A model generated the notes under the pieces. That model had not been told where the DNA came from. It saw only the letters and a list, made by a program, of their open reading frames with translations, and searched no databases. From an uncultured Planctomycetales bacterium (lineage in GTDB: Bacteria > Omnitrophota > Gorgyraeia > Gygaellales > Profunditerraquicolaceae): a stretch of DNA of 30,566 nt. The translations under genes and the position numbers were made by a program. Positions 1 to 16,420 of the stretch are shown here, piece after piece. Where the stretch lies: assembly GCA_964508555.1 (NCBI GenBank), contig CAZDUF010000004.1:1-30566 (forward strand), given 5' to 3'. The stretch's first letter is position 1; each line of letters begins with the position of its first letter.

Positions 1-1555
1 TCGTTACCGCATCTGCCCTGATCTGCAGGTTATCCCACGGTCCTGTCACATCTCCCTGAAAAATAACCGACACATTCATGTCATCGGAAACATTCGTATC
101 CCATCCTGCAAAACCTGTCCCCCCCACAGTGCCATTAATCAACAAACCGCCGGCGCGCACGCTGCCGTTCACGTCAAGTTCTGCCGCAGGATTCACGAGG
201 TTAATACCAACCGCCCCCAGAGTATCGATGATACTTCCTCCGGCAAGCGCCGTGCCGTTCCATCTGGCGACCTCACCCGCTCCGAAAACCCCGACCTGCG
301 GATCCGTCTCTCCGGGGAATGTGATCGTGACATTCGTAGCGTTGGTAATCCTGCCGTCTTCATCAACCACGATGCGCGACACGCTTGAGCTTGAACCATA
401 CGCCCCCGCATCGACTCCCGATGTCTGCAATTCAGATGCGCCGACTGCGCTGACGCCTATTTCTGACGCGCCCACGGCGTCCGGCATAATTTGTAAATTA
501 TCCCACGGTCCGGTGACGTCTCCCAGAAACACGGTAGACACATTCAGATCATCGCTTGCGTTCGAATCGAAACCGCTGAAAGCCGAACCACTTAATGTGC
601 CGTTAATGATCAACCCTGTGCCGCGGATAGCTCCGGCGACATCAAGTTTAGCCTGCGGTGTAGAGGTGCCGACGCCGACATCCTGGGACGCATCTGCGGT
701 ATACAATCTGCTGCCTGCCTGCTCCCAGGCCGTATTCCCCGAGAGATTCGCGACCGACGAAAGCGAACTCCCGTCAGGGAATACAAATCCGCCGCTCAAA
801 GACTGAATACCTCCGTTCACCACAAGCTTGTAACCGCCTACGGTGGTGCCGATACCGACATTGCCGCCGTCAGCAACAATCACTGCCATTGTACCGCCGT
901 CATACAGACGCAATATGTCGCCGCTCCCCTGCTGTGTAACATTCAATACTGGGGTTGTTGCATTCGCGACAACAGTAAGAGGTGCCTCCATAGTATCGGC
1001 CTCGTCTGAACGAATGAACTGCGCGTGATTGAGACCGTCGAAACGATCGGAGTTAAGCGCGCCGACTGACGGTACGACTTTCAAGCGCGGCGTCATTTCG
1101 CCATCGTCATCAACCTCGATGGTCATATAGTACTGCTGATTGAAATCCATGGATGAAGGAAACACGGTTTCGCTGCCGAGATAACACGATATGATGCCGT
1201 GGCTATCTGCAGTCAAGGTTTGCGTCTCTTCCCACAAAACGCTCCCCCCGGTCTCATTTTCGTAGAAACGGAAGGTGAAATCATGCTGACCGGTCACCGG
1301 CGTATTCGTGCTTGAAGTCACCCGTGCCTGGAAAAAGATCTCCTGAGGGACATCAGCAAAGACATGCGAAACGGCTGTCGTCAACGTCATTGCGAGGGCA
1401 AAGCCCGAAGCAATCACAAGTAAGAATAATTTACTAAAGATTGCATCGTCGGCCCTCGGTTCACCCGGCCCTATCGGATGGGCCGGTGCAGGCCTCTGCC
1501 TAGTCCTCGCAATGACGGTGTCTCTTGTTTGCTCCCGCGCTGAAGTCCTATTCAT
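1..1555 (-). CDS. Secreted repeat-containing fibre/adhesin-like protein, 3'-truncated by the window edge (518 codons visible)
   Basis: Not in the ORF track. I translated it by hand from ATG 1555 to position 2 with no stop: MNRTSAREQ...FSKLFLLVIASGFALAMTLTTAVSHVFA|DVPQEIFFQARVT...TGQHDFTFRFY...NSDRFDGLNHAQFIRSD...GNVGIGTT...GAYGSSSSVSRIVVDEDGRIT...GDVTGPWDNLQI (twice). These motifs resemble phage tail-fibre and bacterial trimeric fibre repeats. Confidence 0.85.
   Translation of the reverse strand, partial: MNRTSAREQTRDTVIARTRQRPAPAHPIGPGEPRADDAIFSKLFLLVIASGFALAMTLTTAVSHVFADVPQEIFFQARVTSSTNTPVTGQHDFTFRFYENETGGSVLWEETQTLTADSHGIISCYLGSETVFPSSMDFNQQYYMTIEVDDDGEMTPRLKVVPSVGALNSDRFDGLNHAQFIRSDEADTMEAPLTVVANATTPVLNVTQQGSGDILRLYDGGTMAVIVADGGNVGIGTTVGGYKLVVNGGIQSLSGGFVFPDGSSLSSVANLSGNTAWEQAGSRLYTADASQDVGVGTSTPQAKLDVAGAIRGTGLIINGTLSGSAFSGFDSNASDDLNVSTVFLGDVTGPWDNLQIMPDAVGASEIGVSAVGASELQTSGVDAGAYGSSSSVSRIVVDEDGRITNATNVTITFPGETDPQVGVFGAGEVARWNGTALAGGSIIDTLGAVGINLVNPAAELDVNGSVRAGGLLINGTVGGTGFAGWDTNVSDDMNVSVIFQGDVTGPWDNLQIRADAVT
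1385..1517. repeat. Palindromic miniature element (Rickettsia-palindromic-element/MITE-like) inside the coding frame of the fibre gene
   Basis: Perfect 13-bp terminal inverted repeat CGTCATTGCGAGG (1385-1397) / CCTCGCAATGACG (1505-1517). Inner stem CGAAGCAATC (1406-1415) / GATTGCATCG (1439-1448) with one mismatch. Nested hairpin CCGGCCC (1465-1471) / GGGCCGG (1480-1486). Confidence 0.85.
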
Positions 1556-1561
1556 AAGTAT

Positions 1562-2347
1562 TTAGCGTTTCGTATTGAGCGCTTCAGTAACTTCTTTTGC
1601 CTTCTTCCCGAAAAACGGATTGCTCGGATCAATCTCTGCTGCCTTCTTCCACTGGACCAGCGCTTCCCGCAGGAGCCCAAAGCCCTCAAGCGTCTGCGCA
1701 TAGCGACCCCGTAAACCTGCTGAATTCGGTTCCGCGTTTACTCTCTGCTGATACATCGCCAACGCCTTATCTTTCATGCCGGCAGCGACATAGGCGTTGA
1801 TAAGAATATCTCCGAAGTACTGGTCATTTGGACTCTGCTGGACGATCGGCTCAAGCATCGCGATAGCCTTCGGCGCCTCACCGGCAAGCACATAGTAATC
1901 GATCAGGCGCACTTTATATCCATGATCCTGCGGGTTCGCAGCCTGCAATCCTTCGTAAATACGGGCAACCTTATTCCAATCCTTCAGCCGCACATAGCCT
2001 TCCGCTATGGCTTTTTTCAAGGGGACATTCTCAACACCCGGTTTCTCGCGCGCTTCAAGGACAGTCACGATTTCCTGGATTTTTTCCGGATTTTGCTCCG
2101 CAATCGTATACAACTCAAGAACCGCCCACTCATGGATATCACCATGCTTACCTGCGGCTACCGTATCTGCGATCGAGCGTATCGCGTCATCTTTCTTTCC
2201 GGCCTTCACGAGCGACTCGATATTCCTGCGCGCCGCTTCTGACGGCGTCACTGCAGGGTTTGTTTTCTCTGCCGCACACACAGGCCGGCAGAATACCAGG
2301 GACACCACCATGCCGCTTACCGCTGCCACTGCCATCATCTGTCTCAT
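1562..2347 (-). CDS. Secreted TPR-repeat protein
   Basis: Signal peptide (MRQMMAVAAVSGMVVSLVFCRPVCA|AE) and helical TPR-like repeats ending in ...PQD, ...SPND, ...EPNS, ...DPSN. Confidence 0.85.
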   Translation of the reverse strand: MRQMMAVAAVSGMVVSLVFCRPVCAAEKTNPAVTPSEAARRNIESLVKAGKKDDAIRSIADTVAAGKHGDIHEWAVLELYTIAEQNPEKIQEIVTVLEAREKPGVENVPLKKAIAEGYVRLKDWNKVARIYEGLQAANPQDHGYKVRLIDYYVLAGEAPKAIAMLEPIVQQSPNDQYFGDILINAYVAAGMKDKALAMYQQRVNAEPNSAGLRGRYAQTLEGFGLLREALVQWKKAAEIDPSNPFFGKKAKEVTEALNTKR

Positions 2348-2361
2348 CGGGAGCTCCTTTT

Positions 2362-3960
2362 TTATCTCTTCCAGAACAGAATCTTCTCTTGTAACTCGGA
2401 TACCGTTGCCTCATCCCCTACCGTCCATATCCACTGCGCAGGCGTCGGGTCTTCTTCATCGATCGAAATCGCGCCGTCTGCGTTCAAATCATAACCGCTT
2501 TTCACGTAAAAATAATGGTTGGCGTATACAAGATCCGTAAAGGTTGCTTCGCGCTGCAATGTCCAGGCTGACCAAGACTGGTTATCGATACGCACGGCGA
2601 AAAGCGCGCCCTGTCTGCTCGATTCGAACGTAAACGCGGCCTGCGTTTCCACTGTCGCTGCCGAAGGACCGCTGATAATGCGCGTGTCAGGTGTCAGCCT
2701 GTGCAACGTTATCTGATCGGTATATGCGCCGGAAATATTACCCGCAGCATCCAGAAATTTGACAAATACCGTCTTGACACCGTCGACGTCAGGCTCCAGC
2801 ACCAGCCAGCTCGTAATCACCGTCTGGTAAGGATACGGATGATTCATCTCGGTGTCGAAAATACCGTCGTTGGAGATGACCACAGACGCCACACTCGAGA
2901 CTGCGTCCGAGGCGTCAAGGTGCAGCGAAACGTACGCGGAATGCGACACCGGAGCTCCGGCATTGATACTGAATGTCCCTGACGGCGGCTGTGAATCGGC
3001 GACAAACTCCCAGGCTTGAGAAGCTGCATTGCCCGCCATATCGCGCGCCGTAACCACGACGGTATTCTTGCCTTCCGCCAGATATTCCTCAGAACCCGAG
3101 GAGAATATTCCGGTCTCTGTGTCGTATGATCCGCTCACTTGCCTGCCGTTGAGCTCCATGCGCACGCTGGTCGGGTCAACGCCGGAATCGGCATCAGCGA
3201 TACGGCAGGCTACCGCGATTTTATTATCTGAAAGCAGCGCTCCGGACGCGGGACCCAACTGATTCACGTATGGCCCGAGGCGGTCGATCCAGATCTCAAA
3301 CGAACGCACGCTGTCCATTTCGGGAATCCCTGATGAATAAAACGGCGCGACGTACATCACATGCCGGCCGTTTGCGATAGCGCCGTCGGCAAACTGGAAC
3401 TGCGGGGCGTACGTATCAATCGTGCCGTCAGGGCTGGCATCAACCGCTACGGAGAAACCGTCCACCAGCGCAGCCGGTTCAACAATAATGCCCCAGGAAA
3501 TATACGGGTCGTCATCTTTCTGCCAGGTTTTCTCAGGTATAAGCTCACCCAACACCTCGGCCCGGCAGATGATTTCGCTGATCAGCCAGTCTTTGTCCTC
3601 TCCCAGAACCTCATCCATCCCGTATATGAGCTGCACCTGCCCTGCCTGCAGGCTGAACTGGCCGCTGGAAGCGGATGAAAGCGGGATGAGACCTTCTCCG
3701 ATAATCGACATCACCATCATATGGCTCGATGAGGTTGTCGGCCCTCCGCCGTTGGCGAAAGCGACCGCATCGATCTGGAACGAACCTCCGGTCATCTCAA
3801 CTGCCTCAACCTGCGCATAACAAAACAACATCGCGAATATAAAGCATCCGATTGAAATCAATAGGGTTTTGCTCCAGCTTGAATCTCCCAATAAAAAACC
3901 CGATATCCGCTTTTCGTGGATATCGGGTAGCCCCGCGGGGCGCCGCCTGTGTTTTTTCAT
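2362..3960 (-). CDS. Secreted Ig-like/fibronectin-like multi-domain protein
   Basis: ATG at 3960 overlaps the upstream stop (ATGA), so it is preferred over the track start at 4065. Signal peptide ending AQVEA; beta-sandwich motifs (IDRLGP, NTVVVTARDMAGN, DSQPPSGTFSINAGA, VFVKFLDAAGN, TPDTRIISGP). Confidence 0.75.
   Translation of the reverse strand: MKKHRRRPAGLPDIHEKRISGFLLGDSSWSKTLLISIGCFIFAMLFCYAQVEAVEMTGGSFQIDAVAFANGGGPTTSSSHMMVMSIIGEGLIPLSSASSGQFSLQAGQVQLIYGMDEVLGEDKDWLISEIICRAEVLGELIPEKTWQKDDDPYISWGIIVEPAALVDGFSVAVDASPDGTIDTYAPQFQFADGAIANGRHVMYVAPFYSSGIPEMDSVRSFEIWIDRLGPYVNQLGPASGALLSDNKIAVACRIADADSGVDPTSVRMELNGRQVSGSYDTETGIFSSGSEEYLAEGKNTVVVTARDMAGNAASQAWEFVADSQPPSGTFSINAGAPVSHSAYVSLHLDASDAVSSVASVVISNDGIFDTEMNHPYPYQTVITSWLVLEPDVDGVKTVFVKFLDAAGNISGAYTDQITLHRLTPDTRIISGPSAATVETQAAFTFESSRQGALFAVRIDNQSWSAWTLQREATFTDLVYANHYFYVKSGYDLNADGAISIDEEDPTPAQWIWTVGDEATVSELQEKILFWKR
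3898..3928 (-). terminator. Intrinsic-terminator-like hairpin located inside the 5' end of the Ig-protein gene
   Basis: Perfect 11-bp stem ACCCGATATCC (3898-3908) / GGATATCGGGT (3918-3928). On the minus strand it runs into TTTTTT. Confidence 0.5.
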
Positions 3961-4502
3961 CGGCTCACTGGGATATGGACTGTAAATTCCTGCTTTTCCT
4001 GGTCGTCTCTCATCCGGTATTCCACCTTCACCATTGCCGGAATACCGCTCGACTCTTGCCTCCACTCATGTTGCCAGTTACTGGCGTTACCGTACCAAAA
4101 CATACACTCGGCCACGCCTTCCAGAGAGGGCACATCCTGCGTTCCCCATGTTGCGAAATCGAAATCTGCGGGTTGCTCTATGAAACGATCGATCGTCTTC
4201 GTCTGTCCGTTGTACGCATACCGCACTTCCGCAAGAACGTCTGCCTGCGCCGTGACAAAAGCGAATGATACTTGGAGAGCCTCAAAACCGGCTTTCCCCT
4301 CCTCCTCAACCGCTACCAGCGACTGAATATTCCGTGCCATCTTCTGGAAGAAAACCCTTTGGCGCTGGATAGAATCTGCGAATTTCTCTCCCTGGTGAAA
4401 CGACTTGAACGTCTGCACCATCGAAACCAGGACCAGCGTGATCACCACGGTAAAGATCGTGAATGCTATGATCACTTCTACCAGCGTGAATGCCCGCCTC
4501 AT
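3957..4502 (-). CDS. GspJ/PulJ-like minor pseudopilin
   Basis: Class III signal MRRA|FTLVEVIIAFTIF with E+5; 181 aa; C-terminal W...GIPAMVKVE pattern typical of GspJ-like proteins. Confidence 0.8.
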   Translation of the reverse strand: MRRAFTLVEVIIAFTIFTVVITLVLVSMVQTFKSFHQGEKFADSIQRQRVFFQKMARNIQSLVAVEEEGKAGFEALQVSFAFVTAQADVLAEVRYAYNGQTKTIDRFIEQPADFDFATWGTQDVPSLEGVAECMFWYGNASNWQHEWRQESSGIPAMVKVEYRMRDDQEKQEFTVHIPVSR

Positions 4503-6079
4503 TACTCTGCCGCAATGGCAACTCCGGCCTGTGCCGGCATGTTGTCGGCGCTCACCTTTTTCTGCTCCTGCACCTGAGCAGCACGAGCCAGATATTCATT
4601 CGACCTGGCAGTATCGCCTGCCAGCTGGTAGATATGAGCTAAATGACGATAGGTGATAACGAGTTCCGGATTCCGCGCGATCGCCTGCTCGTAATAGGCG
4701 ACTGCCTCCTGATACCTGCCGGTCACCTCATAAATATTGCCCGCGTTATGATACGGATCCGCATAATGAGGTTTGAGAGCAATCGCTCTCTTGAACTCTT
4801 CGATAGCTTTCTCGTAATTCCCTTCTTTTGCGTACACGTCTCCCATATTGTTGTGCGCGCGGGGGCTTTCAGGCGAAACCTCAACCGTGGCCCTCCAGAG
4901 TTTCTCGGGAGTTCTCCAATCTTCGTTCCGTACTACCGTACGCGCGGCATACCCGGCGATAATGAATGAACAGAGGGCTAACCCAATTCCTTTCATACGT
5001 TTCCTGCTGAATAAGCTCTGATAGGCAAACGCCATGATGATACTCAACATGATCGATGGCGTATACACATACCTCTCGGCAAGCAGCCAACTGATGGTTA
5101 CCGGGCTGTATGTCGGAGCGAGGAATAAAGCGAACAAGAGGATCCCGAAGAAAACAGGGCGCGCCCGCTCATATATGATTGTTAGCACGACAGCGCCAAA
5201 AACAAGCGCCAGCAGCCCCATGCGCAGCCAGAAAATTGTGATGATCGGAGGCTCATGATACAGTGACAACTCTGCCGGCCAGAAGAGCAATCCCAAATGG
5301 GAGAAGAGCGAATACACCATATTGAAAAGAGGATTCGTCCATTGGAACCCCCCTTCCATTTCCTTCGATACTGACACGGCCCTGCCTGCTATGTCCATTT
5401 TGCTCATGTAGAGGCGCAGGACAAGGATGATAAAGAAAGGGACTATCCACTTCCAAGTTCTGCGGATACGCTGAAATGTCGCATCGAATATTACCAGTAG
5501 CACGGGAAATACAAAGTAAAACGCGAAATTACGGTAGATAAAATATGAAAAAACGGCGAGCGCCCCGAGGTACCAGCGAATATACACGGTTTGAACCGAA
5601 TCCGGCCGCTGAGGTTGAACCGCGGTCAACCCCTGGGGTTGGATCGAACCAAGCTGGCGTGTCGCCCGATAGTACAAGAGTAACGTGCCCAGAGTAAACA
5701 AACCTACCAACACATACGGGCGGCCCGATATCCAGGTCACAGCCTCGGCATGAATAGGATGCACCGCAAACAGCGCCGCTCCGAGCAAACTCGCACGTTG
5801 CCTGAAGAAAAGGCTCAAAAATACGAAAACGAGAATCGTCATGACGCTATGCGCCAGGATGCTGACCGCGTGATACGGCACTGGGTTCGTCTTTGTTGCC
5901 CGGTACACCAGACTGTTCAGCGTATTGTGCGGAAACATAAGATAGCGCGCCGTATCTCCCAAATCCTTGTTCTCGACAATGTCCGCAACGTCATCTGACA
6001 CGAACTGATTCGGCAGCGAATTCGCGTACACCAGAAAACACAATGCGACTAAAAATATGTATACGTACTTTTTTTTCAT
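4502..6079 (-). CDS. TMTC-type GT-C glycosyltransferase (putative protein O-mannosyltransferase) with C-terminal TPRs
   Basis: First-loop DD motif (VSDDVAD), YHAVSILAH, LFAVHPIHAEAVTWISGR, ERYVYTP, RNEDW...LW, SPRAHNN; many TM segments; three TPRs. Confidence 0.85.
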   Translation of the reverse strand: MKKKYVYIFLVALCFLVYANSLPNQFVSDDVADIVENKDLGDTARYLMFPHNTLNSLVYRATKTNPVPYHAVSILAHSVMTILVFVFLSLFFRQRASLLGAALFAVHPIHAEAVTWISGRPYVLVGLFTLGTLLLYYRATRQLGSIQPQGLTAVQPQRPDSVQTVYIRWYLGALAVFSYFIYRNFAFYFVFPVLLVIFDATFQRIRRTWKWIVPFFIILVLRLYMSKMDIAGRAVSVSKEMEGGFQWTNPLFNMVYSLFSHLGLLFWPAELSLYHEPPIITIFWLRMGLLALVFGAVVLTIIYERARPVFFGILLFALFLAPTYSPVTISWLLAERYVYTPSIMLSIIMAFAYQSLFSRKRMKGIGLALCSFIIAGYAARTVVRNEDWRTPEKLWRATVEVSPESPRAHNNMGDVYAKEGNYEKAIEEFKRAIALKPHYADPYHNAGNIYEVTGRYQEAVAYYEQAIARNPELVITYRHLAHIYQLAGDTARSNEYLARAAQVQEQKKVSADNMPAQAGVAIAAE

Positions 6080-6091
6080 TATCTTTAGCTG

Positions 6092-6146
6092 AACTACCCC
6101 ATATCCGCAAACCGGTCAACCGGCAAACCGGCTAACCAACTACCCC
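6092..6146. repeat. 8-bp tandem repeat flanked by a 9-bp direct repeat
   Basis: AACCGGTC (6110-6117), AACCGGCA (6118-6125), AACCGGCT (6126-6133), plus a degenerate fourth unit AACCAACT; AACTACCCC at 6092-6100 and 6138-6146. Confidence 0.7.
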
Positions 6147-7804
6147 GGCCCCAACACCCGCAACACCTCGGCAACGTTGGTCGCGCCGAAGACTATCTTC
6201 TCCCACCCGTCGTCGTACATGAATGTCATACCCTGGGCGCGACAAGCCTTGATGATTTCGGTGGAACTCGCCTTCTCGACCGTGAGCCTGCCGATCTGAG
6301 GAGTCATCTCCATAATCTCGAATATCCCCACCCTGCCGCTGAAACCGGTGTGCAGGCAATCCTGACAGCCGTGCGCCTCCCACACCTCCACTTCCTTGTC
6401 GGCATAAGGTGCTTCCTTGAACAACTTCTTTGATTGCTTAGATTTACATTTCTTGCATAATACCCTGACAAGCCGCTGCGCAACCACGCCGTTCAAGCAA
6501 GACGCGATCAGGAATGGTTCAATACCCATGTCGACTAATCTGGTTACTGCAGACGCGGCGTCATTCGTATGGAGTGTTGAAAATACCAGGTGTCCGGTGA
6601 GAGCCGCCTGGATTGCGATTGTTGCGGTTTCCAGATCCCTTATCTCCCCCACCATAATGATATCGGGATCGTGTCTGAGTATCGACCGCAACCCGTTGGC
6701 GAATGTGAGATTAACTTTCTGATTCACCTGAATCTGCCTGCAGAAATCAAGGTGGTACTCAACGGGATCCTCAATGGTAATAATATTTTTCTCGACTGAT
6801 TGAATAATCGAAAGCGACGCATAGAGTGTTGTCGTCTTACCGCTTCCTGTCGGTCCGGTCACCAGGATAATCCCTGACGGTTTCCTGATCAGCTGTTCGT
6901 ACCTCTCCAGATGTTTCTGTGACATTCCTAACTGATTGAGTGTCAAAACTTTCTTGTTCTGTTTCAATAACCGCAAAACGATGCTTTCCCTCTCAATCGT
7001 AGGGATAACCGATACACGCACATCCAGGGCAGTTCCGTCAAGCTCGACATTGAATCTTCCATCCTGGGGCTGCCTGCGCTCTGCGATATCCAGGTTCGCC
7101 ATGATCTTGATGCGGGATACAAAAGCGTTATATGCGGTCGATTCAGGAGGCGTAATCTCTTTGAGCACGCCGTCGATACGGAGCCGCAGGCGCATCTTGT
7201 CGCGTTGGGCTTCGATATGAATGTCAGACGCTCCGAACTTGAGCGCCTGCAGCAACAGGAGATTTACCGCTTCGATGATGGACGGTTTGGAGAATTCCTC
7301 TTTCAGATAACCGTCATCTATCTTGAGAGCAGGGTGAGCTGATTCCTGACGCTCGTGTCTTTGCCCTTCTCTCCTGTCGCAGCATCTGCTCAAGACATCG
7401 ATGAGCTCATCCTCCCTGACCAGGTACGGCTTGATAAAGAGTCCGGTGCGAAAGCGCAGCTCATCATATATAGAGGAATCCAGCGGATCGAGCACGCCGA
7501 CCGCAAGCTCGAAATTATCCTTGAATAACGGGATAACCTTCTTCTCCCAGAGCAGCTCCGCGGGCACCAGCGCCAACAGCGCTTTGTCCGGAGAAAAAGT
7601 ATTCAGCCGGAATTCTTCGAGATTCAGATGCTTGCCGAGAAATCCGGTCAGCTTCTCTTCGGAGATGACTTTCAGCTGACGCAGGGCCTGTACCAGCGAC
7701 ACGGAGCTGCGCTGCTGCTCGAGCCGAATGGTCTGCATCTGCGCGGGCGATACGATCCCATCGCGTTCCAGCTGTTCTTCAAGATTCAATTGCTGCATAA
7801 TCAC
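6140..7804 (-). CDS. gspE: GspE/PilB-family assembly ATPase
   Basis: Walker A GPTGSGKTTT, TIEDPVEY, LRHDPDIIMVGEIRD, TGHLVFSTLHTN, tetracysteine motif CKKC...CQDC, and an N-terminal MshEN/N1-like region. Confidence 0.95.
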   Translation of the reverse strand: MIMQQLNLEEQLERDGIVSPAQMQTIRLEQQRSSVSLVQALRQLKVISEEKLTGFLGKHLNLEEFRLNTFSPDKALLALVPAELLWEKKVIPLFKDNFELAVGVLDPLDSSIYDELRFRTGLFIKPYLVREDELIDVLSRCCDRREGQRHERQESAHPALKIDDGYLKEEFSKPSIIEAVNLLLLQALKFGASDIHIEAQRDKMRLRLRIDGVLKEITPPESTAYNAFVSRIKIMANLDIAERRQPQDGRFNVELDGTALDVRVSVIPTIERESIVLRLLKQNKKVLTLNQLGMSQKHLERYEQLIRKPSGIILVTGPTGSGKTTTLYASLSIIQSVEKNIITIEDPVEYHLDFCRQIQVNQKVNLTFANGLRSILRHDPDIIMVGEIRDLETATIAIQAALTGHLVFSTLHTNDAASAVTRLVDMGIEPFLIASCLNGVVAQRLVRVLCKKCKSKQSKKLFKEAPYADKEVEVWEAHGCQDCLHTGFSGRVGIFEIMEMTPQIGRLTVEKASSTEIIKACRAQGMTFMYDDGWEKIVFGATNVAEVLRVLGPG

Positions 7805-7807
7805 CGT

Positions 7808-10735
7808 TTAGTTTCCGGATGCGATAATCTCCTCCCCTGACGGAGAGAGGACTTTCGCGGTCACGAAGATCATCAGATTTTTGCGCTGCACGACGTCGGA
7901 ATCTTTCTTGAAAAGGTTCCCCAGGACGGGAAGACTCCCCAGAAGCGGAACCTTGGTCACGGTCTTGGTGCGGCTCTCCTTGACGAGACCGCCGAGAACG
8001 ACCGTGTCCGCGGAGTTGACGACGACGGTCGTCGAGAGATTACGCGAGGTGAACAACGGCAGCGTGACATTCCCGGAATACTGAAAGGCGTCGGCCGTGG
8101 CCTCGCTCACTTCGGGAATAAGTGACAGGTTGATGGTCTTGCGGTCTGCGCCGACGGTGGGAACCACTTTCAGGATGATGCCGACGTCCCTGCGCAGGAA
8201 ATCCTTGGGCACGTTCTGATAGGCGGTCTCCCCTGCGTCGTTAAAATCTCCGTCACCGTTCACGTCAAACTGCACGATCTCGAATTCATACCGCGTGGGA
8301 TAGATCCATTCGTCGACAACCTTGATCGACGCCATCTGGCTGTTCAGCGTCGTGATACGAGGACTCGAAAGGGTCTTTATGCGCTTGGTCTCCTCGAGGG
8401 CGTGCAGCACGACCTGGAATTGCGGATACGTGAGCACTCCCTTGTAGGTAAAATTCAACCCTTCCGACGCGCGCGTAAAGGACGTGAAATCGAACCCGCT
8501 GTTCGCTGCCAGCCCTTGCGCGAAGTTGCCGTCTTCCTTGTCGAAGGCGAAATCGTCGTTGAGCTTGAGCTCGATACCGAAATCCTTGGTATCGGTGATA
8601 TCGATCTCGATGAACCGCGCCTCGATCAACACCTGCACCGGCTCGATATCCAAAGAATACAGCATCTCCTCGAGCATCTGCAGATTCTGCGGCGTGTTAC
8701 GCGCAATCAGGGCATTAAGCCTTTTATCATAGGTAAGCTTGGCATCAGCCGGCCAGGCAACCACTTCTTTAAGTGTATCTTCAATGGTGTAAATCTTGTT
8801 GATCTGGGCGGACGATCCCCCCAGCCCGGTCGAGCCGCCGGAAACCGGCGTGAAATCGGTAAACAGTCCGCCGCCTCTCAAGAGATAATACACCCGCGTC
8901 TCCATGGCCTCGTTTGCGACCTCTTCGGGATCGGCGATCCAGACGATTTCCTTGTCGATGCGGTACACGAGGCCGAGGCTTTTGGTGAGGTACTTGATCA
9001 CTTCGATGATGTTGGCGTCGTCGAAGCGCGCGGTCACGGTGGGGTCGAGATTCAACACCTTCTGCGACGCGACAAAGTTTACCCCGGACTCCTGCGAGAG
9101 AAATTTGACGACAGATTTCAATCCTACCTTGTCGAAATCCATGGTCACGCGTTTCTCCTGGAGCTTTCTCCGGATAATCGGGGTTTCGATGAGAGGCGTC
9201 ACCGACTGTTTTTCTATCTTCTTCGGCGGGTCGACGTACGGAGGAATCTGCGTTTCATACACCTCGCGGATCATGGTGTCCTCCGTATGGACGATATCGG
9301 TCTTCAGCACACCTCTGGCCTGCTGTTCCTGAGCGGCGAGCTTCTTCTCACGCGCCTGCTCGATAAAACGCTTTGCCTCAGATGTGTACTTCGTGCGCGG
9401 ATTGCCTTCGAGAGAAACCACCCGCTCGAATCCTTTGATCGCCTCGTCATACATGCCTTCGTTATACAGGCGTTTGGACACCTGCCAGAGCGCATCCACC
9501 CTGCGCATCTTCTCCGCTTCATCGTGCGCCTTCATCGCCGCGTCAACGTCATCGGCAGCCAGGGCAACGCCGCGTTCCTGGCGGCCTTCATATACTTCTG
9601 CTATTTCCGCCCCATCGTCGTCAAGCAACGCGTCTTGTTCAGCCAATAATGCCTGTAAACGCCGCTGGCGATCGTCGGTCTTCGTCGCAGGCGCACTCCG
9701 TGGCGTGACCGTCCGTTCGTCCTTTGCCAAACGGCGCCGCTCGCGCAGAGCATCCTCTTTCTCCTGCAGCCGGTATTCTTCTTCCATCTGCTCTATCTCG
9801 GCGCGCCGCTTCTGCATCTTATCTTCGCGCTGGCGCAGCAAATCTTCTTCGCGCGCGGCGAGCATCTCTTCTTTGCGCATCTGCTCCTGGCGCAACTGTT
9901 CCATGCGCTCCTCGCGCGCGGCGCGCTCCGCGTCAAGCTTAGCCAGACGCTCGGCGTCTTTCTTCAAACGCTCGACGTCTTTAATCCGCTGCGCCTCCTG
10001 CGCATCAAGCAACGCCCGCTGCTTCTGGGCCTCCATCTCGGTGCGCTTCTGAATCTCGGCAATCTGCAGTCGCCGTTCCTCTTCTTTCTGTTTCAACTGC
10101 AGCTGCGCCTCCCGGGCCTTGCGGTCGGCTTCTTTTCGGGCGCTCTCAATCTCAAGTTTCAATTTGCGTTCCCGTTCTTCAATCTCTTTTTTACGCTGCG
10201 TAACCGCCGTCTGACGCTCGAGCTCAAGCTTTCGCACAAGCTGCGTGCGCTCCAGTTCACGCTGTTTCGCCGCCTTCTGCGCCTCATCCTGCAGCTGCTT
10301 CAGTCGGGCTTCTTTTTCCGCTGTTTCTTTGGCACGCGCGGACGCGCTTTCACTCAGCATGCTCGTGAGATTGCTGTCGGCAGCGGGCACGGCAGTCTTG
10401 ATACAGGACTCGCTCGGAGGCTTGGTGCCGATCTTGGCAAGCAGATTCTCGGCATCTACGCGCGTCGGTTTGTATCCCTTGCCCTCGCGCCATTGCCGCA
10501 AAGAACTATCGGTATTCAGAACCGCAAGCACATAATTGAGTTTCTCGCGCGCGCGGTCGTAACAGCCCTTCTGGTAGAAAATCAACGCCTCACGATATGC
10601 GCTGTCGACTCCCTGGCTCGCTTCGAGCACGCGGTCGTCTTGCACGTCGTACGCACCTGCGAACCCGAACACACCCGCCATCAGGCACGCGACACACAGA
10701 CTGACACACGTTTTGCCCATGGAATATCTAGCCAT
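7808..10735 (-). CDS. gspD: Secretin (GspD/PilQ family) with long N-terminal coiled coil
   Basis: C-terminal secretin motifs QVLIEARFIE, TLSSPRITTLN, DVGIILKVVP, DTVVLGGLV, KVPLLGSLPVLGNLFK, LMIFVTA; N0/N3-like domains; signal peptide. Confidence 0.92.
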   Translation of the reverse strand: MARYSMGKTCVSLCVACLMAGVFGFAGAYDVQDDRVLEASQGVDSAYREALIFYQKGCYDRAREKLNYVLAVLNTDSSLRQWREGKGYKPTRVDAENLLAKIGTKPPSESCIKTAVPAADSNLTSMLSESASARAKETAEKEARLKQLQDEAQKAAKQRELERTQLVRKLELERQTAVTQRKKEIEERERKLKLEIESARKEADRKAREAQLQLKQKEEERRLQIAEIQKRTEMEAQKQRALLDAQEAQRIKDVERLKKDAERLAKLDAERAAREERMEQLRQEQMRKEEMLAAREEDLLRQREDKMQKRRAEIEQMEEEYRLQEKEDALRERRRLAKDERTVTPRSAPATKTDDRQRRLQALLAEQDALLDDDGAEIAEVYEGRQERGVALAADDVDAAMKAHDEAEKMRRVDALWQVSKRLYNEGMYDEAIKGFERVVSLEGNPRTKYTSEAKRFIEQAREKKLAAQEQQARGVLKTDIVHTEDTMIREVYETQIPPYVDPPKKIEKQSVTPLIETPIIRRKLQEKRVTMDFDKVGLKSVVKFLSQESGVNFVASQKVLNLDPTVTARFDDANIIEVIKYLTKSLGLVYRIDKEIVWIADPEEVANEAMETRVYYLLRGGGLFTDFTPVSGGSTGLGGSSAQINKIYTIEDTLKEVVAWPADAKLTYDKRLNALIARNTPQNLQMLEEMLYSLDIEPVQVLIEARFIEIDITDTKDFGIELKLNDDFAFDKEDGNFAQGLAANSGFDFTSFTRASEGLNFTYKGVLTYPQFQVVLHALEETKRIKTLSSPRITTLNSQMASIKVVDEWIYPTRYEFEIVQFDVNGDGDFNDAGETAYQNVPKDFLRRDVGIILKVVPTVGADRKTINLSLIPEVSEATADAFQYSGNVTLPLFTSRNLSTTVVVNSADTVVLGGLVKESRTKTVTKVPLLGSLPVLGNLFKKDSDVVQRKNLMIFVTAKVLSPSGEEIIASGN

Positions 10736-10737
10736 GA

Positions 10738-11820
10738 TTACTCATCCTCCCGTTTGATCACGGTCAAGAAATTATCGCTTCCTTCAAGGATAACTTCAGT
10801 CTCCGAGAAATTTTTCAGGCGGAAATTATCGAACCGATCTCCCACCGACAGAAAAAGCGTCTCCTTGCGCATCGCATCTTCGATCACCGCTACCTGCTTG
10901 GTGCGCAGGAGCGCCCGCCCCTTGTAGAAAAACCGCTGCGCGGGCTTTTCTTCCTCCGGAGGCTGCGTCACGTCCTCCTCGACACCCGTCTGTTTCACCG
11001 GTATGAGAAACGGGCTTTTGCTGCGCAAGAGCGACACCGCAGTGTCGATCCCCGCGGGATACGATTCATCGGGGACCTGCGCCACGGTTATCTTTCCGTC
11101 TATTCCTTGTATATCAGACAAAGAAACGCTTAATGTCGAATATTTCAGCGAGACGTACACGCTCTCCGGCTCGACCCGGACTTTAAGCGCCTGGCTGCAC
11201 AGTTTCGGAACGATCCCGTTCATGCGGATCAGAAAATCCATCACCGTCGCGTGCGGAAACGCCAATTCCATTTCGGCGGGAACTTCGCGGGTGTCGGGCA
11301 GCGCGCTCTCTTTTGTCGGAGGAAGCGGTTTTGCCAGCGACACGTCGGCTCCCGACGCGACGGCCAACTCGGCGACTGAACGCATCGCGTAGAGCTGTCC
11401 CAGAAGCAGCGCCGCATCCGACTCAGACGGAAGTTTATCCGTGAACGAGAAACCGGAAAAATCCGTTTGCCGGGAATCAGCAAGGGCTTTTAATTCGGTT
11501 GAGGAGCGGTTCAACTCCTCGGCGAAGAGAATGCTCATATCGTAATTCGAGCGCGTCCATTTCGCGCGCGGGTCAAACAGCGCGCCGAGAGCTGCAAGGC
11601 GGACCGCGCTCGATGAAACCGCGGCGCGCAGGTCAACGACTTTCTTTTCGCTAAAGGCCCCGAGCGCGTCATCGAGCTGCGCGGCGCTGGCGGCTGCGCG
11701 GCGCGCGTACGCTTCCTCGCGCGCGCGCAGCACAAACGCGCTCAGGCACAGGCAGAGTACAACCGCGAGTAACGGCTTCCATGCAGGGGCGCGCGCGGTA
11801 GCAGCAGAAGCGGCGATCAT
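10738..11820 (-). CDS. PilO-like protein with C-terminal PilP/GspC-like domain
   Basis: N-terminal TM helix, helical linker, ferredoxin-like PilO pattern (EMELAFPHATVMDFLIRMN...LKVRV), Pro/Glu linker, then YKGRAL...AVIED...FLSVGDRF...VIL. Position between the pilMN-like gene and the secretin. Confidence 0.55.
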   Translation of the reverse strand: MIAASAATARAPAWKPLLAVVLCLCLSAFVLRAREEAYARRAAASAAQLDDALGAFSEKKVVDLRAAVSSSAVRLAALGALFDPRAKWTRSNYDMSILFAEELNRSSTELKALADSRQTDFSGFSFTDKLPSESDAALLLGQLYAMRSVAELAVASGADVSLAKPLPPTKESALPDTREVPAEMELAFPHATVMDFLIRMNGIVPKLCSQALKVRVEPESVYVSLKYSTLSVSLSDIQGIDGKITVAQVPDESYPAGIDTAVSLLRSKSPFLIPVKQTGVEEDVTQPPEEEKPAQRFFYKGRALLRTKQVAVIEDAMRKETLFLSVGDRFDNFRLKNFSETEVILEGSDNFLTVIKREDE

Positions 11821-13274
11821 GTGGATATCCCCTGCCGGCGCCGCATATCGAATCTGATTTTGAATTCGATTGCCGCTTGCTCATCCTGTGCCGCGCCTGC
11901 TCCTCCGTTTCCTCCGGAACCGGAGGAAACGACCTTGACGTCGCTGACCGATTCCGTGCCGCGCAACTTCACGATGAACTGGTTGATCTCGTTGTAATCG
12001 GCAGAGGTGCCGCTGATGTACAACTCTAATCCTTTTTCCCCTTCTTTGAGCTCAAACTCCTTGATCTCGATGCCGGTTGACGCCCCTGCGGAAACAGCGG
12101 CCATCGCTTTCAGGAACAGTTCCTGGTTATCGATCTTCGACTGCAGGAATTGCGTCGCCGCGTCGAGGCGAGCTTTCTTCTCTTTGAGATTCTTGATCTC
12201 GGGAATATACGCCGCAGCCTGCGCGCATGTGCGGGCGGCACGCGAACGCGCATCCTGCAGACGGAACACGGAACGCACGTTCACGAATACGAGCCCCGCG
12301 CACGCCGCGGCCAGAGAATACACCGCGAGTTTTTCAGCGTAATTGATGCGGCTGGCGATCCGCTCCGTGCGCACCTGTTCGCCGATCAGGTTCACGTACA
12401 CAGTCGACGACGCGCGAAGGCACGTCAGCCCGTAACCGATGCTGGAACCGATGGAATACGGATCGGACGGCAACACGGCTTTCGGGCAGGAAATTTTACG
12501 CAAGGGGTTAACCTGAATAATTTCGCAGCCGGGGAAATGTTCCCGCAACGCGCTCACGATCGATGCGGGATAATTCGCTCCGCTTAAATACACGCGCATC
12601 GAAGACTTCGACGACTTGGACGGATTCTGCAGATAATGCGTGTTGACCACGCGTTTGACTTCCTGCAGAAACGCATCCGAAGACTGCGCGTTGTCGGTGA
12701 GCGAGCTTCTGCCGATAGGAAGCGGATATGTCCAAAGCCTCCTGTCTTCATGAAACATGATATCGGATACGCGGCCGCGCATATTTAATAAAAGAAACTT
12801 TCCCTTCTCACCGTAATTGTGCAGAATCAGATTATACAATCCGTACGCCGCGGGTACGACTCCGGACACGGAGAATCCCGCAGAGGACAGGCGCGTGCGC
12901 GTCTCTTCGACAATCTCTCTGCGCGCGGCAACAAGCGTGATCACCGGTCCCGAAGGCACCACCTGCCAGAAGCATTCATCGAGTTTGAGCGGCAGGTTCA
13001 GTTTCTGGAGCGCGGGAAGGATGTCCCTGCGAACATCGCGAGCGCGGGAAAGCGCAGGAGTCGACTGGATATGTTTTAAGAAAAGACTCGGAACCGGAAG
13101 GCTCGTGACCGTTACCTGATTTTTGTTGACGTTCAGCGCGGAAAGATTTTCTGCGGAAGGGACAACATGCTGCGAAGTCAATACCACCTTGTTGTGGCGC
13201 AGGCTGAGCTCAGTCACGACAGTCGCGTCACTATCTATATCAATGCTCAAAATTGTCTTTGGTTTTAAGCCCAT
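11817..13274 (-). CDS. pilM: PilM-PilN-like fusion (pilus assembly/alignment protein)
   Basis: ILSIDID start, actin-like region (FLLLNMRGRVSDIMF, RVYLSGA, GSSIGYGL), VNLIG, TM helix, coiled coil, PilN-like LYISGTSADYNEINQFIVKL. Start placed at ATG 13274; 13325 is also possible. Confidence 0.7.
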   Translation of the reverse strand: MGLKPKTILSIDIDSDATVVTELSLRHNKVVLTSQHVVPSAENLSALNVNKNQVTVTSLPVPSLFLKHIQSTPALSRARDVRRDILPALQKLNLPLKLDECFWQVVPSGPVITLVAARREIVEETRTRLSSAGFSVSGVVPAAYGLYNLILHNYGEKGKFLLLNMRGRVSDIMFHEDRRLWTYPLPIGRSSLTDNAQSSDAFLQEVKRVVNTHYLQNPSKSSKSSMRVYLSGANYPASIVSALREHFPGCEIIQVNPLRKISCPKAVLPSDPYSIGSSIGYGLTCLRASSTVYVNLIGEQVRTERIASRINYAEKLAVYSLAAACAGLVFVNVRSVFRLQDARSRAARTCAQAAAYIPEIKNLKEKKARLDAATQFLQSKIDNQELFLKAMAAVSAGASTGIEIKEFELKEGEKGLELYISGTSADYNEINQFIVKLRGTESVSDVKVVSSGSGGNGGAGAAQDEQAAIEFKIRFDMRRRQGIST

Positions 13275-13406
13275 CGCCGCCTTTCGTATTCGCCGCGTGA
13301 ACCGTGACGCATCAACCAAACACATTGCGCGCATCAATGAGCGAAGTATGCTGCGCGCTTCAATCTGTCAACGAACTGAGTCTTATCCTCCTATATATAT
13401 TATTTA

Positions 13407-13436
13407 TTATTAAAACATGGTTCCGGAATTTGTCAA
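13407..13436 (-). promoter_or_regulatory. Candidate sigma70 promoter for the pilM-secretin-gspE operon
   Basis: Perfect TTGACA (13436-13431) followed by an AT-rich tract; the -10 hexamer is ambiguous. Confidence 0.4.
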
Positions 13437-13705
13437 TACATCTTTGCAAGTAATCGCGCTCATTTTTTTAGACGCGATACAGCATACACCAACAACCCGG
13501 TACACTTCACACAATCCATGGACAGCATATCGAGATACGGTGGTCGCAACAGTCAACGCATCTCACATCAAGAGAATGGATGCACAGAATCGCGCGCAGC
13601 GCGCATGTTGACAGTCTGAAATGCTGACATGTCGAATTGGTGCTGGCAGCTTGTTATCACGCACTGCATTTCACAGAGATTTAACTTATTGATAAATAAT
13701 ATTTT

Positions 13706-16420
13706 TCATTCCTTAACTAAACCGCCACGATCATAGATAATTCGGATACTCTCTGTTGCCGACGTCTTATCACGCACCAGATACTCTCCCCTGCTCTTGA
13801 GCTCATATACATCAGAGCGCACCGTAAGACGCGAGTGCATGCCAAGAAACGCAGGGTTCAGAAGTATTAGGTCGCCGACTCCCAGAAGGTCGCCGTTGCG
13901 GTTACCAAGCGGCCGGTTCTCAAGCACCGCCTGCACGAGCGAGCCGTCGTTGAAAACGCTCTTCAATACCTGCGTGGTTGCAGTGTTGACATTGATGCGC
14001 CCGGCCACTGAAAGCACCGGCTCAAGAATTATTTTTTCCAGCGCGATTTTTTTGCCGGATGTGTTTTCGATACGCACATAAAGACTTCCCTTGTCAGCGC
14101 CGCTTATCTGGGCCATGCCGTAATGCAATCTGTTTTCGCGAAAGGCAAGACTCAAATTCGCACCCGGAGATTCCGTTTGCGCTACGCTCACAAGCACCGA
14201 AATATCGGAGACATCCTCTCCTTCGATACTGACCCAGTACGCGGCAGCAGGAACCGCATCGAATTTCCATTCGTGCGATGCGCCGGCATCCATTTCAACG
14301 GCGCTCCCCTCCTGCCCCGAGAACCAGAGTTCCTGAACGCCGTATGCGAAGGAATCGCACACCAGCGCGCAATCGCGCGCGTCAAACCTCTCCCATTCGA
14401 CGCCGTTTGATATCTGCACGAGCTCGCTCAAATCTTGCAACGGCCTGTTGAATAATTTAATCTGCGCGGGGCTATGCTTCGTCAATCCTCCCTGCTGCGT
14501 GTACATGCCCAGATTCTCATTGGTTGCACCAGGAGTCGCGAGCGATTTGGCCGAAGAAAAATACCAGCCGTCTACCAGACCGTCTTTATCCGCGTCAACG
14601 CGCGAGGCAGGGTCTGAGCGTTCGATGCTGATAAAAGGCATGACCATCGTTGCGGCATATTCGGCCGCATCGATTGTCCTCCCGTTTTTGTTTTTCAAAA
14701 CCACAATGCCGCCGGCATCGGGAAAGAGATCGAACGTGCGGTCAATGACCGGTTCATACGCTCCGAAATCGGGATGCCGCGCGCCGAAACCCCAGGCGTT
14801 CCTGAACGACACGCCGTTGCCTCTGAGCTTGCCAGGCGCCTCAGAACCGTCGTCGTTATCCGTTGCCAGCACCAGGTGCTGAAACGGCTGCACCACGGTA
14901 TTCTCTCCGACGACTGCCGGGTACCCTTTCACCAGTTCGCCCTCGGGCGTCATCACCTCAAGAGAACAGCCGCCGATGTCAACCGGCTGCGATGACAGAT
15001 TGATCAACTCGATGAACTCGGCATCAGGCTGGCGCGAGAGCCTGATCCCGCCGAAGAGGGCCTGTTTCACCGGATCGTTATTCACGACGCTGACCTGAAT
15101 GATTCCCGTTTCGCCGAGCGAGACAGCAGATGAAAGAAAATCTCCCGCTGACAAATCCTTTCCTGAGACGCCGGCGCAGGTGACGTCTCCCACGTAACCG
15201 CCGGGCGATCCTGAAAGCACCATGACGTGATACTTGCCTTGCGGCAGATGCGCCGCGTTAAACGTGAATTCCCCCCGCTCTCCCTTTCCCAGCGCGAGCG
15301 TCGCCGTGAAATCCTGCCAGGGAGCCGGCATGATCTCGTTAATAGCGATCGCCTCGCTTCCCGCCGCAACGCTGCGCGACATACCCTGCGCCGCGCCTGC
15401 CTCGACAAGACGCAGGTGCGAAAACACGCTTTCGCCGTCAGACGCCGGAGCAATCGTCATCGTAAACCCTCCACCCGACACACTCACCTTCTGCGCCAGT
15501 TTCTCCGCATGCTTATACACCTGCCCCTGAATGCTGCCGATGGTATCGTTCGACGAGCTTGCGTACACAAAACAATCATACTCCCCGTCAGCAATCGCCA
15601 GGTTCGACCAGTGAAACACGCCGGCAAGAGAACCGGCGACGGCGCGGTACACATCGCCCGTAAACTGCCACCCTCCCTGATCGATCATGCCCGACGGCGT
15701 GACTTTCGAAAGAAGCGACTCGACAAACTGGGTCTGGCTCAAATCCTCATCGCCGGCATCAACAACGAGCGCGGCTTTCTGCCGCGCGTCCTCGATGCCG
15801 CGGTCGAGAAATACGTCCAGAATCAGCTGCGCGTTCGCTGAATTCAGATACGGCCTGCGGTTATTCTTCAGATCGAATTCCCTGTCCCGGGAATACACGG
15901 TTACGTACGGAATCAGTGACGCGGTCTCATTCGTGCCGAGGACTCTGCTTAATTCTTCGACAGCGCGATACGGACGGCCGGCAATAATCGATGCGGCGCG
16001 TGACGGGTCGAGGCTGCATTCTGAAAGGAGGTTCGCGAGTTCCTGCTCGCTGCAGACGTTCAGATGGAGTTTCCCTGCCTCATCCGACACGCTGATGCTG
16101 AATCTGCCGAACCTGTTTCCCGAGGCGTCCCTGACTTCAAACCATCGCTCCCCGGCAAAATGGGAAAAAGACACATCATCAAGCGAATCGATGGCATTGA
16201 GCTTCTTCTCCGTCTGCAGCACCTCCTGCGCGTAGACGATTCCCGCTTCAGCAATGTATCGCGAGCGGACCGCGTCCAGATGCTTGACTGCCGCGAACTG
16301 CTCCTGTTGAGCGAGCATAAAGAAAGCGATGCCGATAACGAAGAACATCGCAAGAAACGCAATCACGATGATCAGCGCCTGAGATTTATTGCTGTATATA
16401 CGTAATGAACTTCTCGGCAT
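13706..16420 (-). CDS. gspK: GspK/PilX-like large minor pseudopilin with helix-hairpin-helix motifs, lamin-tail domain and beta-sandwich modules
   Basis: KSQA|LIIVIAFL pilin-like helix without E+5, SRYIAEAGI, SVSDEAGKLHLN, PYVTVYS, RINVNTAT, LTVRSDVYELKSRG; LTD motifs INEIM and EFIELIN. Confidence 0.75.
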   Translation of the reverse strand: MPRSSLRIYSNKSQALIIVIAFLAMFFVIGIAFFMLAQQEQFAAVKHLDAVRSRYIAEAGIVYAQEVLQTEKKLNAIDSLDDVSFSHFAGERWFEVRDASGNRFGRFSISVSDEAGKLHLNVCSEQELANLLSECSLDPSRAASIIAGRPYRAVEELSRVLGTNETASLIPYVTVYSRDREFDLKNNRRPYLNSANAQLILDVFLDRGIEDARQKAALVVDAGDEDLSQTQFVESLLSKVTPSGMIDQGGWQFTGDVYRAVAGSLAGVFHWSNLAIADGEYDCFVYASSSNDTIGSIQGQVYKHAEKLAQKVSVSGGGFTMTIAPASDGESVFSHLRLVEAGAAQGMSRSVAAGSEAIAINEIMPAPWQDFTATLALGKGERGEFTFNAAHLPQGKYHVMVLSGSPGGYVGDVTCAGVSGKDLSAGDFLSSAVSLGETGIIQVSVVNNDPVKQALFGGIRLSRQPDAEFIELINLSSQPVDIGGCSLEVMTPEGELVKGYPAVVGENTVVQPFQHLVLATDNDDGSEAPGKLRGNGVSFRNAWGFGARHPDFGAYEPVIDRTFDLFPDAGGIVVLKNKNGRTIDAAEYAATMVMPFISIERSDPASRVDADKDGLVDGWYFSSAKSLATPGATNENLGMYTQQGGLTKHSPAQIKLFNRPLQDLSELVQISNGVEWERFDARDCALVCDSFAYGVQELWFSGQEGSAVEMDAGASHEWKFDAVPAAAYWVSIEGEDVSDISVLVSVAQTESPGANLSLAFRENRLHYGMAQISGADKGSLYVRIENTSGKKIALEKIILEPVLSVAGRINVNTATTQVLKSVFNDGSLVQAVLENRPLGNRNGDLLGVGDLILLNPAFLGMHSRLTVRSDVYELKSRGEYLVRDKTSATESIRIIYDRGGLVKE

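Follow-up and report, generated by a model that had tools for sequence, protein, structure and literature searches.

Di Nocera, De Gregorio and Rocco (2013) recognized two superfamilies of repetitive extragenic palindromes (REPs), one tagged with GTAG and the other with CGTC (PMC3733652). The CGTC REPs start with CGTC or TGTC, their stem has A-T pairs at its base, and they end in a 3-nt tail. They occur mostly as head-to-head dimers with the tags outside, lie occasionally in frame inside genes, and include Neisseria dRS3 as well as R. conorii RPE-4 and RPE-6; in 2013 they had no known enzyme of their own (PMC3733652). The subject of this report is a palindrome with such tags at positions 1385–1517 of a 30,566-nt stretch of DNA from an uncultured Omnitrophota bacterium (GCA_964508555.1, contig CAZDUF010000004.1), the whole of which is referred to as the window. 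The palindrome lies in the 5′ end of a gene for a putative surface fibre, is read in frame with it, and probably supplies the hydrophobic region (h-region) of the fibre's export signal, the ancestral h-region being gone.

Translation of a palindromic repeat is an event of a known kind rather than a new kind, as in-frame REP and Rickettsia palindromic element (RPE) insertions and a signal-peptide precedent are known. The inserts of RPE-1 have been described in surface loops of enzymes rather than in signal peptides. RPEs are inserted in frame in Rickettsia open reading frames (ORFs), as described by Ogata et al. (2000, cited in PMC3733652), and similar to these the present element is a palindromic repeat translated in frame within a seemingly functional gene. 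The original prediction, which was made from the sequence alone, had likened the element to RPEs. This likeness holds at the level of the superfamily, the CGTC tag being common to RPE-4 and RPE-6 (PMC3733652), but is not supported as family membership; the host phylum differs, and the placement is by tag and description rather than by an RPE consensus sequence.

In Yersinia pestis, an RU-2/ERIC-like repeat forms part of the predicted signal peptide of YPO1552 (Delihas 2007, PMC2759123). Both cases are in silico inferences in which a small palindromic repeat is fused in frame as part of a long predicted signal peptide (41 aa in YPO1552), and in both the homologues (those of YPO1552 in other genera) have unrelated signal peptides. 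In contrast to the present element, the RU-2 family is MITE-like (resembling miniature inverted-repeat transposable elements) and 168 bp in length, and its target is a small hypothetical protein. The case described here is the cleaner one because the fibre is large and conserved, with clear orthologues, its cleavage site is conserved, and its native h-region is clearly missing.

The Neisseria repeat NTS, CGTCATTCCCGCGMAVGCGGGAATCYRG, is bound and cut by SsnA, and this only as single-stranded DNA (Nat Commun 2025, PMC11893778). SsnA is a 94-aa GIY-YIG protein with homologues in different phyla, and these are flanked by Ssn-related motifs (SRMs) of their own; NTS copies are reported to lie rarely inside genes (PMC11893778). 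REPINs, or GTAG REPs with RAYT transposases, resemble the present repeats in forming singlets and inverted doublets of hairpin units that fold as one long hairpin, in being dispersed between genes and in lacking target-site duplications. They differ in carrying a GTAG rather than a CGTC tag, and in having an IS200/IS605-type tyrosine transposase as partner rather than a GIY-YIG nuclease.

A tagged hairpin dimer within the fibre gene

The element and the ORF in which it lies are made up as follows.

1–1555, minus strand: 5′ part of the fibre-protein ORF, at least 518 codons, running off the window start; predicted start codon ATG 1555
1385–1517, no strand assigned: whole element, 133 nt, a head-to-head heterodimer of two CGTC-tagged hairpin units with the tags outward
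1385–1415, plus strand: short-arm unit, with CGTC tag, lower stem ATTGC/GCAAT, GA/GAA internal loop and upper stem GGGC-AAA-GCCC
1416–1438, no strand assigned: spacer between the units, AT-rich (17% GC), encoding FSKLFLLV, the first part of the predicted h-region
1439–1517, minus strand: long-arm unit, with CGTC tag and GTCATTGCGAGG ... GATGCAATC around a 58-nt expanded middle

The original prediction described 13-bp terminal inverted repeats and an inner stem, and both are real: CGTCATTGCGAGG stands at 1385–1397 (plus) and 1505–1517 (minus) as a perfect inverted repeat, and the inner stem GAAGCAATC/GATTGC has its arms at 1406–1423 and 1431–1448. CGTCATTGCGAGG was found nowhere else in the window, even allowing two mismatches, and relaxed matching gave no further element copies there above chance. 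A repeat finder returned one other inverted repeat in the window, a CG-run palindrome near 24070–24103. In shuffled windows, perfect 13-mer inverted repeats no more than 150 nt apart arose at a mean of 0.035 per shuffle (any in 5 of 200 shuffles).

The 153-nt element region folds far more stably than its shuffled counterparts, both as RNA (−68.6 kcal/mol, z = −6.35) and as DNA (−39 kcal/mol, z = −7.7), with none of 200 shuffles as good in either case. In this fold the 13-bp outer stem closes a three-way junction. Taken as single-stranded DNA, the short arm adopts the fold ....(((((..((((...))))...)))))...., that is, a tag, a 5-bp stem, an internal loop, a 4-bp stem and a tail, and on the gene strand it encodes IASGFALAM(T). 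The long arm, which encodes VIARTRQRPAPAHPIGPGEPRADDAI, folds alone no better than shuffles (z = −0.59) and pairs with the short arm in the dimer; its GATGCAATC has one mismatch relative to GAAGCAATC, and its middle holds hairpins at 1462–1488 and 1489–1502. The idea that the inner hairpin of the long arm is a separate nested repeat was rejected, as it has 0 matches in viral contigs and dimers of a long and a short arm recur in the family described below.

The description of the element as mobile DNA of the terminal-inverted-repeat type was not upheld, since the 13-bp repeats are the tagged feet of a REP-type head-to-head dimer. A MITE was likewise rejected, because the flanks GTCGTCAA and GTGTCTCT form no target-site duplication and the tagged feet belong to autonomous hairpin units that also occur singly. 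A search of Rfam with the element and with canonical family members gave nothing at the gathering or E-value level. The only Rfam matches in the window are two tRNA genes at 20296–20384 and 22489–22562 (minus).

The fibre ORF begins MNRTSAREQTRDTVIARTRQRPAPAHPIGPGEPRADDAIFSKLFLLVIASGFALAMTLTTAVSHVFADVPQ and stays open to the window edge. The element spans the third base of codon 13 to codon 57, in agreement with the in-frame placement first proposed, and the translation then quoted is exact for the minus-strand ORF from ATG 1555. The frame is thus kept through the element, but the palindrome itself is 133 nt long (131 without the outer C/G) and not a multiple of 3. Excision of 133 or 131 nt leads to a frameshift and an early stop, and MNRTSAREQTRD-T-LTTAVSHVFA/DVPQ, where the slash marks the predicted cleavage site, is regained only when 132 nt are removed. 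Consequently, a clean-insertion model needs a 1-nt ambiguous boundary.

The presequence and its hydrophobic core

Two features of the fibre N-terminus bear on export.

1355–1555, minus strand: predicted presequence, residues 1–67, with n-region 1–42, h-region 43–63 and a c-region ending VFA67, followed by D68
1367–1429, minus strand: hydrophobic stretch LFLLVIASGFALAMTLTTAVS, residues 43–63

The predicted presequence has a Sec-type layout: an n-region with a net positive charge (8 K/R vs 5 D/E), an uncharged h-region, and V-F-A before D68. Residues 43–63 are the only uncharged hydrophobic run ahead of the conserved cleavage site. Residues 43–56 are encoded by the element and 58–63 by the flank; as the original prediction had it, the core LFLLVIASGFALAM comes from the element, namely from its spacer and short arm. 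The cleavage context VFA/DVPQ is kept in proteins P0001–P0004, and SHVFA/DVPQ of the window aligns with xFA/DVPQ of the orthologues. The orthologue presequences are only 28–33 aa long, in contrast to 67 aa here (MFKKRASRIGLVGILTLVLISIFSWEAVFA/DVPQQ; MFKKRANLKICVILFLICINLFFWDSVFA/DVPQQ; MFNQRFNRMGKTRVLFTIILLIGALFFWNFAFA/DVPQQ), and their h-regions are ordinary and unrelated to the element. Nearly all of 72 more distant homologues likewise carry 20–35-aa signals directly ahead of the conserved mature N-terminus. The family motif is present at the gene start in none of the fibre orthologues and homologues examined.

Hydrophobicity was expressed as the maximum 9-residue Kyte-Doolittle mean (KD9). 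With the element the KD9 of the presequence is 2.61, and after the 132-nt excision it falls to 1.27, leaving no h-region, as had been anticipated for removal of the element. Across 58 homologous loci the median KD9 is 3.1, and all but three reach at least 2.37. The three exceptions are not N-terminal signal peptides (L156 and L182 are mis-anchored, and in L177 the anchor motif lies inside a longer protein), so that the window without the element falls below every genuine homologue.

It was also considered whether the spacer is an ancestral h-region caught between two independent insertions. Composition and codon usage ruled this out. Windows of 24 nt with at most 21% GC make up 0.5% of the 30-kb window and none of the fibre gene, whose minimum is 29%, and the spacer codons include AGT, which accounts for 7% of Ser codons, and two copies of TTA, which accounts for 5% of Leu codons. 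With its foreign composition, the spacer is therefore not a relic of the native h-region.

The following order of events is one that we infer. A dimer would have inserted within the 5′ end of the gene for a secreted fibre, downstream of an operon resembling those of type IV pili and type II secretion systems (T2SS). The element would be transcribed and translated in frame from ATG 1555, with the long arm lengthening the n-region by about 26 residues, most of them polar or basic, and with the spacer and short arm, plus six flank residues, forming the only h-region before the ancestral signal-peptidase site. The ancestral h-region may have been deleted at or after insertion, or may have been lost in a rearrangement that placed a tetratricopeptide repeat (TPR) gene upstream. 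Made from ATG 1555, exported, and cleaved at A67/D68, the fibre would now most likely depend on element-encoded residues for Sec-dependent export.

The choice of start codon bears directly on this proposal. ATG 1555 lies 6 nt past the stop of the TPR gene and is placed for translational coupling; no promoter or terminator consensus was found on the gene strand between the two genes. Use of Shine-Dalgarno (SD) sequences in this genome is patchy, so the absence of one at ATG 1555 says little. An alternative that appears quite unlikely is that translation starts inside or after the element, at ATC39, GTG47 or ATG56, and that most of the element is a 5′ leader RNA, perhaps a regulatory one. Starting at ATC39 would give M/IFSKLFLLVIASGFALAMTLTTAVSHVFA, a signal of orthologue length (29 aa), with GAGGG about 13 nt upstream. 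Furthermore, starts are hard to call where SD sequences are inconsistent, and many REPs that annotations place at the N-terminus of an ORF in fact lie outside genes (PMC3733652). However, ATC is very rare as a start codon. The remaining canonical in-frame candidates (GTG47, ATG56 and TTG58) lack an SD and would yield a protein with no charged n-region, or with no h-region and therefore no signal. ATG 1555, with its coupled position, is taken as the only plausible start. Even so, the h-region of a protein begun at ATC39 or GTG47 would still be encoded by the element, which leaves the main point unaffected.

Another fibre homologue (L127, 2881–2950) has a palindromic repeat of a different kind, GTAGGGGCGGGCCCC...GGGCAACCACGGGGGGTTGCCCCTAC, within its presequence. 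There is no canonical start between this repeat and the h-region, so that the repeat too is apparently translated and belongs to the n-region. As part of the speculative extension set out below, this second, unrelated presequence palindrome hints that the gene position is a preferred and tolerated landing site.

The repeat family and the Ssn nucleases

The original prediction called the element mobile-like, and it does belong to a large, dispersed palindromic family whose units are single or paired. The family unit consists of YGTCATTGCGAG, a variable mini-hairpin and GAAGCAATCY. The motif GTCATTGCGAG-N(4-14)-GAAGCAATC matches at least 120 viral contigs, where about one match would be expected by chance for its 20 fixed bases (our own estimate). 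Units occur as singlets and also as inverted doublets of 64–201 nt, and 44 head-to-head dimers were present among the fetched loci. A pyrimidine stands before GTC (position −1) in 96% of 222 units and after AATC (position +1) in 98%. The commonest middle is CGAAGC, which completes a GCGAAGC mini-hairpin; others are GTGCAGAGCACC, GCTGACGAAGTCAGCC and TCCCGATTTATCGGGAC, and that of the window is GGCAAAGCCC. As the middle is free in sequence yet self-complementary, structure rather than sequence appears to be conserved there. In the sampled units the middle measures 2–36 nt, against 58 nt in the long arm of the window. A 30-nt unit identical to the short arm was found in an unrelated contig (L060). 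Asymmetric dimers with one expanded arm, which is 79 nt long here, recur in L202, L203, L204 and L206 (115–121 nt), and the dimer of L203 folds into the same three-way junction.

Cultured hosts of the dimer are Novosphingobium resinovorum, N. aromaticivorans, Methylosinus trichosporium OB3b, Methylobacterium and Aulosira. In these organisms the copies always lie where no feature is annotated, and in N. resinovorum the dimer occupies at least 40 places on one replicon. Copies of the family also lie in frame within real genes, as is seen in a phage portal gene (L055, 7921–9507, minus strand) with a 67-aa in-frame insert at residues 176–242 bounded by family units. In this portal, phrog_64 aligns over residues 21–507, across the insert, and Pfam SPP1_portal also matches; a homologous portal in L033 has a family unit at the same position. 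A literature search by sequence found no paper giving the family sequence, and the repeat class is apparently uncatalogued so far.

Comparison with the CGTC REPs places the class within a known superfamily. Similar to the CGTC REPs, the units carry (C/T)GTC as a terminal tag, right next to which begins a stem that opens with A-T pairs, and they have a short unpaired tail (C-Y-C/A in the family). Both window units begin CGTC, and the ATTGC/GCAAT pairing of the short arm leaves tag and tail unpaired. Both groups form mainly head-to-head dimers with tags outside and 20–100-nt spacers, heterodimers occur, and the copies are mainly intergenic with occasional in-frame intragenic ones. In contrast, CGTC-1 to CGTC-4 have a continuous 8–9-bp stem with a 4–5-nt loop, whereas the stem of the present class is interrupted, with 5 bp, a GA/GAA internal loop and an upper stem of very variable length. 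The hosts of the present class also differ, being uncultivated groundwater or sediment bacteria and their phages, some alphaproteobacteria, and cyanobacteria. Since the interrupted stem fits none of CGTC-1 to CGTC-4, the repeats form a new class within the CGTC-REP/SRM superfamily.

The class shares with NTS the layout CGTCATT ... AATCY(R/A) and the single-stranded fold layout seen in the short arm. The published SRM pattern, HGTCWYN(0-2)YYVSBRHN(0-5)WNVSBRGN(0-2)RNCYNB, matches the NTS control but 0 of 234 family units and nothing in the window. Both of its ends (HGTCWY and RNCY) are shared, and the units fail to fit because the stem sequence differs.

An Ssn-like probe sequence recovered the N. 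gonorrhoeae ssnA locus at 70% identity, and three real Ssn homologues were then aligned and used to fetch 40 Ssn-like loci from viral contigs. Two of these, L219 (1501–1785) and L234 (1501–1758), encode GIY-YIG proteins (PF01541, 8.6e-15 and 1.7e-10) with family units on both sides, which is the repeat-ssn-repeat architecture. The other 38 loci are without the class of the element; the flanking repeats detected, in about half, are different (C/T)GTC-tagged hairpins. The association came only from searches starting at Ssn homologues, as the first 120 loci carrying family copies had a single degenerate match to an Ssn-like gene beside them. On the strength of tag, fold and gene neighbourhood, the element is classed as a member of the CGTC-tagged REPs and Ssn-related motifs, and Ssn, a small single-domain GIY-YIG nuclease of the cd10448 type, is the candidate partner of its family.

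An ssn homologue of Planktothrix lies between copies of the covarying repeat GTCATTCTGAG-TGAAAC-GAAGAATCT. On the Planktothrix agardhii plasmid NZ_LR882964.1 (L211), arrays of GTCATTCTGAG...GAAGAATCT at 2698–2867 and 3339–3410, which include truncated tandem copies of the tag half, flank a GIY-YIG (Ssn-like) gene that sits between an MmeI-type restriction-modification gene and DISARM drmA.

Relatives, operon context and what the locus may mean

The closest relatives of the fibre are hypothetical proteins of Candidatus Omnitrophica metagenome-assembled genomes and of similar metagenomic contigs, with 46–59% identity in the N-domain. In every relative examined, the fibre gene follows the same operon of secretin, T2SSE ATPase, pseudopilin and Big_13 genes. 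The N-domain (window 1–1354, minus strand) has weak matches to NCBIfam NF053851, the Bdellovibrio mosaic adhesive trimer fibre (6e-6, below cutoff), and to Bd2133 in PDB 8OND (3e-6). Its likeness to these proteins and its position beside a pilus/T2SS-like operon hint at a host- or prey-contact fibre. The gene directly upstream in the window is the following.

1562–2347, minus strand: TPR gene, 261 aa, with its own signal-like N-terminus, ending 6 nt before the fibre start

This gene stands between Big_13 and the fibre gene in the window only, being absent there in L122, L123 and L197–L199, and no record of its protein was found among recorded proteins. Its unique position suggests a rearrangement next to the repeat.

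The closest fibre relative, L122, has 4–5 family units, in every intergenic gap of its pilus operon (units at 42–110, 422–467 and 1129–1294). The middles of three of these units are expanded to about 26 nt and are related to one another, which points to a local subfamily. The L123 operon contains one family dimer, and the units of these two loci together indicate that the lineage carries the repeat family. The presequence of L122 is 51 aa long behind a good SD (GGAGG), indicating that long n-regions are tolerated in the fibre family.

An alignment of orthologous N-termini had been suggested for finding an empty-site allele. The palindrome is absent from the orthologues, but no empty-site or same-species allele was found, the best identity being 53% in the protein database and 32% in a GTDB genome scan. 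A metagenome scan for a close fibre allele gave at best 48% among the matches listed. JGI contig Ga0394875_0005322 (sample 3300037501) is 100% identical over window positions 2134–16079 and ends at 2134, inside the TPR gene and 617 nt before the element. This contig is the only other assembly of the organism that was found, and its end before the element counts in favour of an assembly artefact, in which two loci would have been joined or collapsed at a palindromic repeat into an in-frame fusion that exists in no cell. The element is indeed a repeat-family member and a strong palindrome, and the TPR gene beside it is absent at that position in relatives. However, such an artefact is considered very improbable. 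The conserved order of secretin, T2SSE, pseudopilin, Big_13 and fibre genes argues against a chimeric join, and the window holds no other copy with which to recombine. Even with a wrong join the 5′ end of the fibre would begin inside the element, because there is no start codon or h-region between the element and the cleavage site.

A further explanation, unlikely though a real contender, is that a recent insertion removed the native h-region and was merely tolerated or is damaging, so that the fibre is exported poorly, stays anchored in the membrane or does not function, in a gene that has simply not decayed so far. Youth is suggested by the nearly perfect complementarity of the arms and by the foreign composition that the spacer still has. 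The presequence is twice the usual length, the peptide alone has no relative among 5.8 billion proteins (words were shared with one protein and nothing scored), and its KD9 is at the low end of the homologues. But at least 518 codons are open, the N-domain keeps the invariant residues of the orthologues, and the hydrophobic frame falls directly ahead of the conserved cleavage site behind a positively charged n-region. L122 moreover shows that a 51-aa presequence works in the fibre family.

Several points count against the view that the dimer supplies a working export signal. The 67-aa presequence, with its 42-aa proline-rich n-region and 21-residue uncharged stretch, is atypical and could anchor the protein or work poorly. 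The structure of −68 kcal/mol, 38 nt into the coding sequence, could hinder translation. The near-perfect palindrome and foreign spacer suggest a recent event on which selection has perhaps yet to act. An open frame is weak evidence by itself, since family dimers usually have several (0–4 of six frames are stop-free, most often 3 or 4; the window element has 2). The element is single-copy within the 30 kb examined, and no GIY-YIG or Ssn-like gene was found among the window ORFs. The nearest sequence found has about 53% identity, too distant to reveal whether the insert is conserved or whether an allele lacking it exists, and as the JGI contig stops at 2134 no independent assembly spans the element. 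The original prediction that the element was exapted rather than merely tolerated is therefore retained in part: exaptation is, by inference, the best reading, but it is drawn across this distance to the nearest relatives.

In the frame used here, family dimers typically end in a hydrophobic patch of the ...DCFxxLAMT type, so that the class is predisposed to supply such a segment. It is a speculative and rather doubtful extension that export signals and membrane segments, whether new or replacing older ones, arise repeatedly from family dimers through a stop-free frame ending in a hydrophobic (I/C)(A/F)xxxLAMT patch. On this proposal a dimer can offer a stop-free, hydrophobic-ended frame in either orientation, and by landing in the disposable presequence of a surface protein it can replace the h-region. 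A strong hairpin together with a cognate single-strand nuclease might also make expression or recombination of host-contact fibre genes switchable.

The YGTCATTGCGAG-hairpin-GAAGCAATCY repeat is very common in uncultivated bacteria and phages and can now be tied to Ssn nucleases, a link that helps explain the thousands of spurious VIASEAKQS, SLRGAKRRSN and DCFASLAMT peptides in gene calls. Together with the GIY-YIG genes, the repeat class forms a further candidate Ssn-substrate pair, cleavage being predicted by likeness. If the presequence works, the locus is a clear natural case in which a selfish hairpin repeat has become the functional Sec signal core of a conserved surface fibre. If this is true, the disposable N-terminus of secreted proteins would be a place that absorbs repeat DNA and then comes to depend on it.

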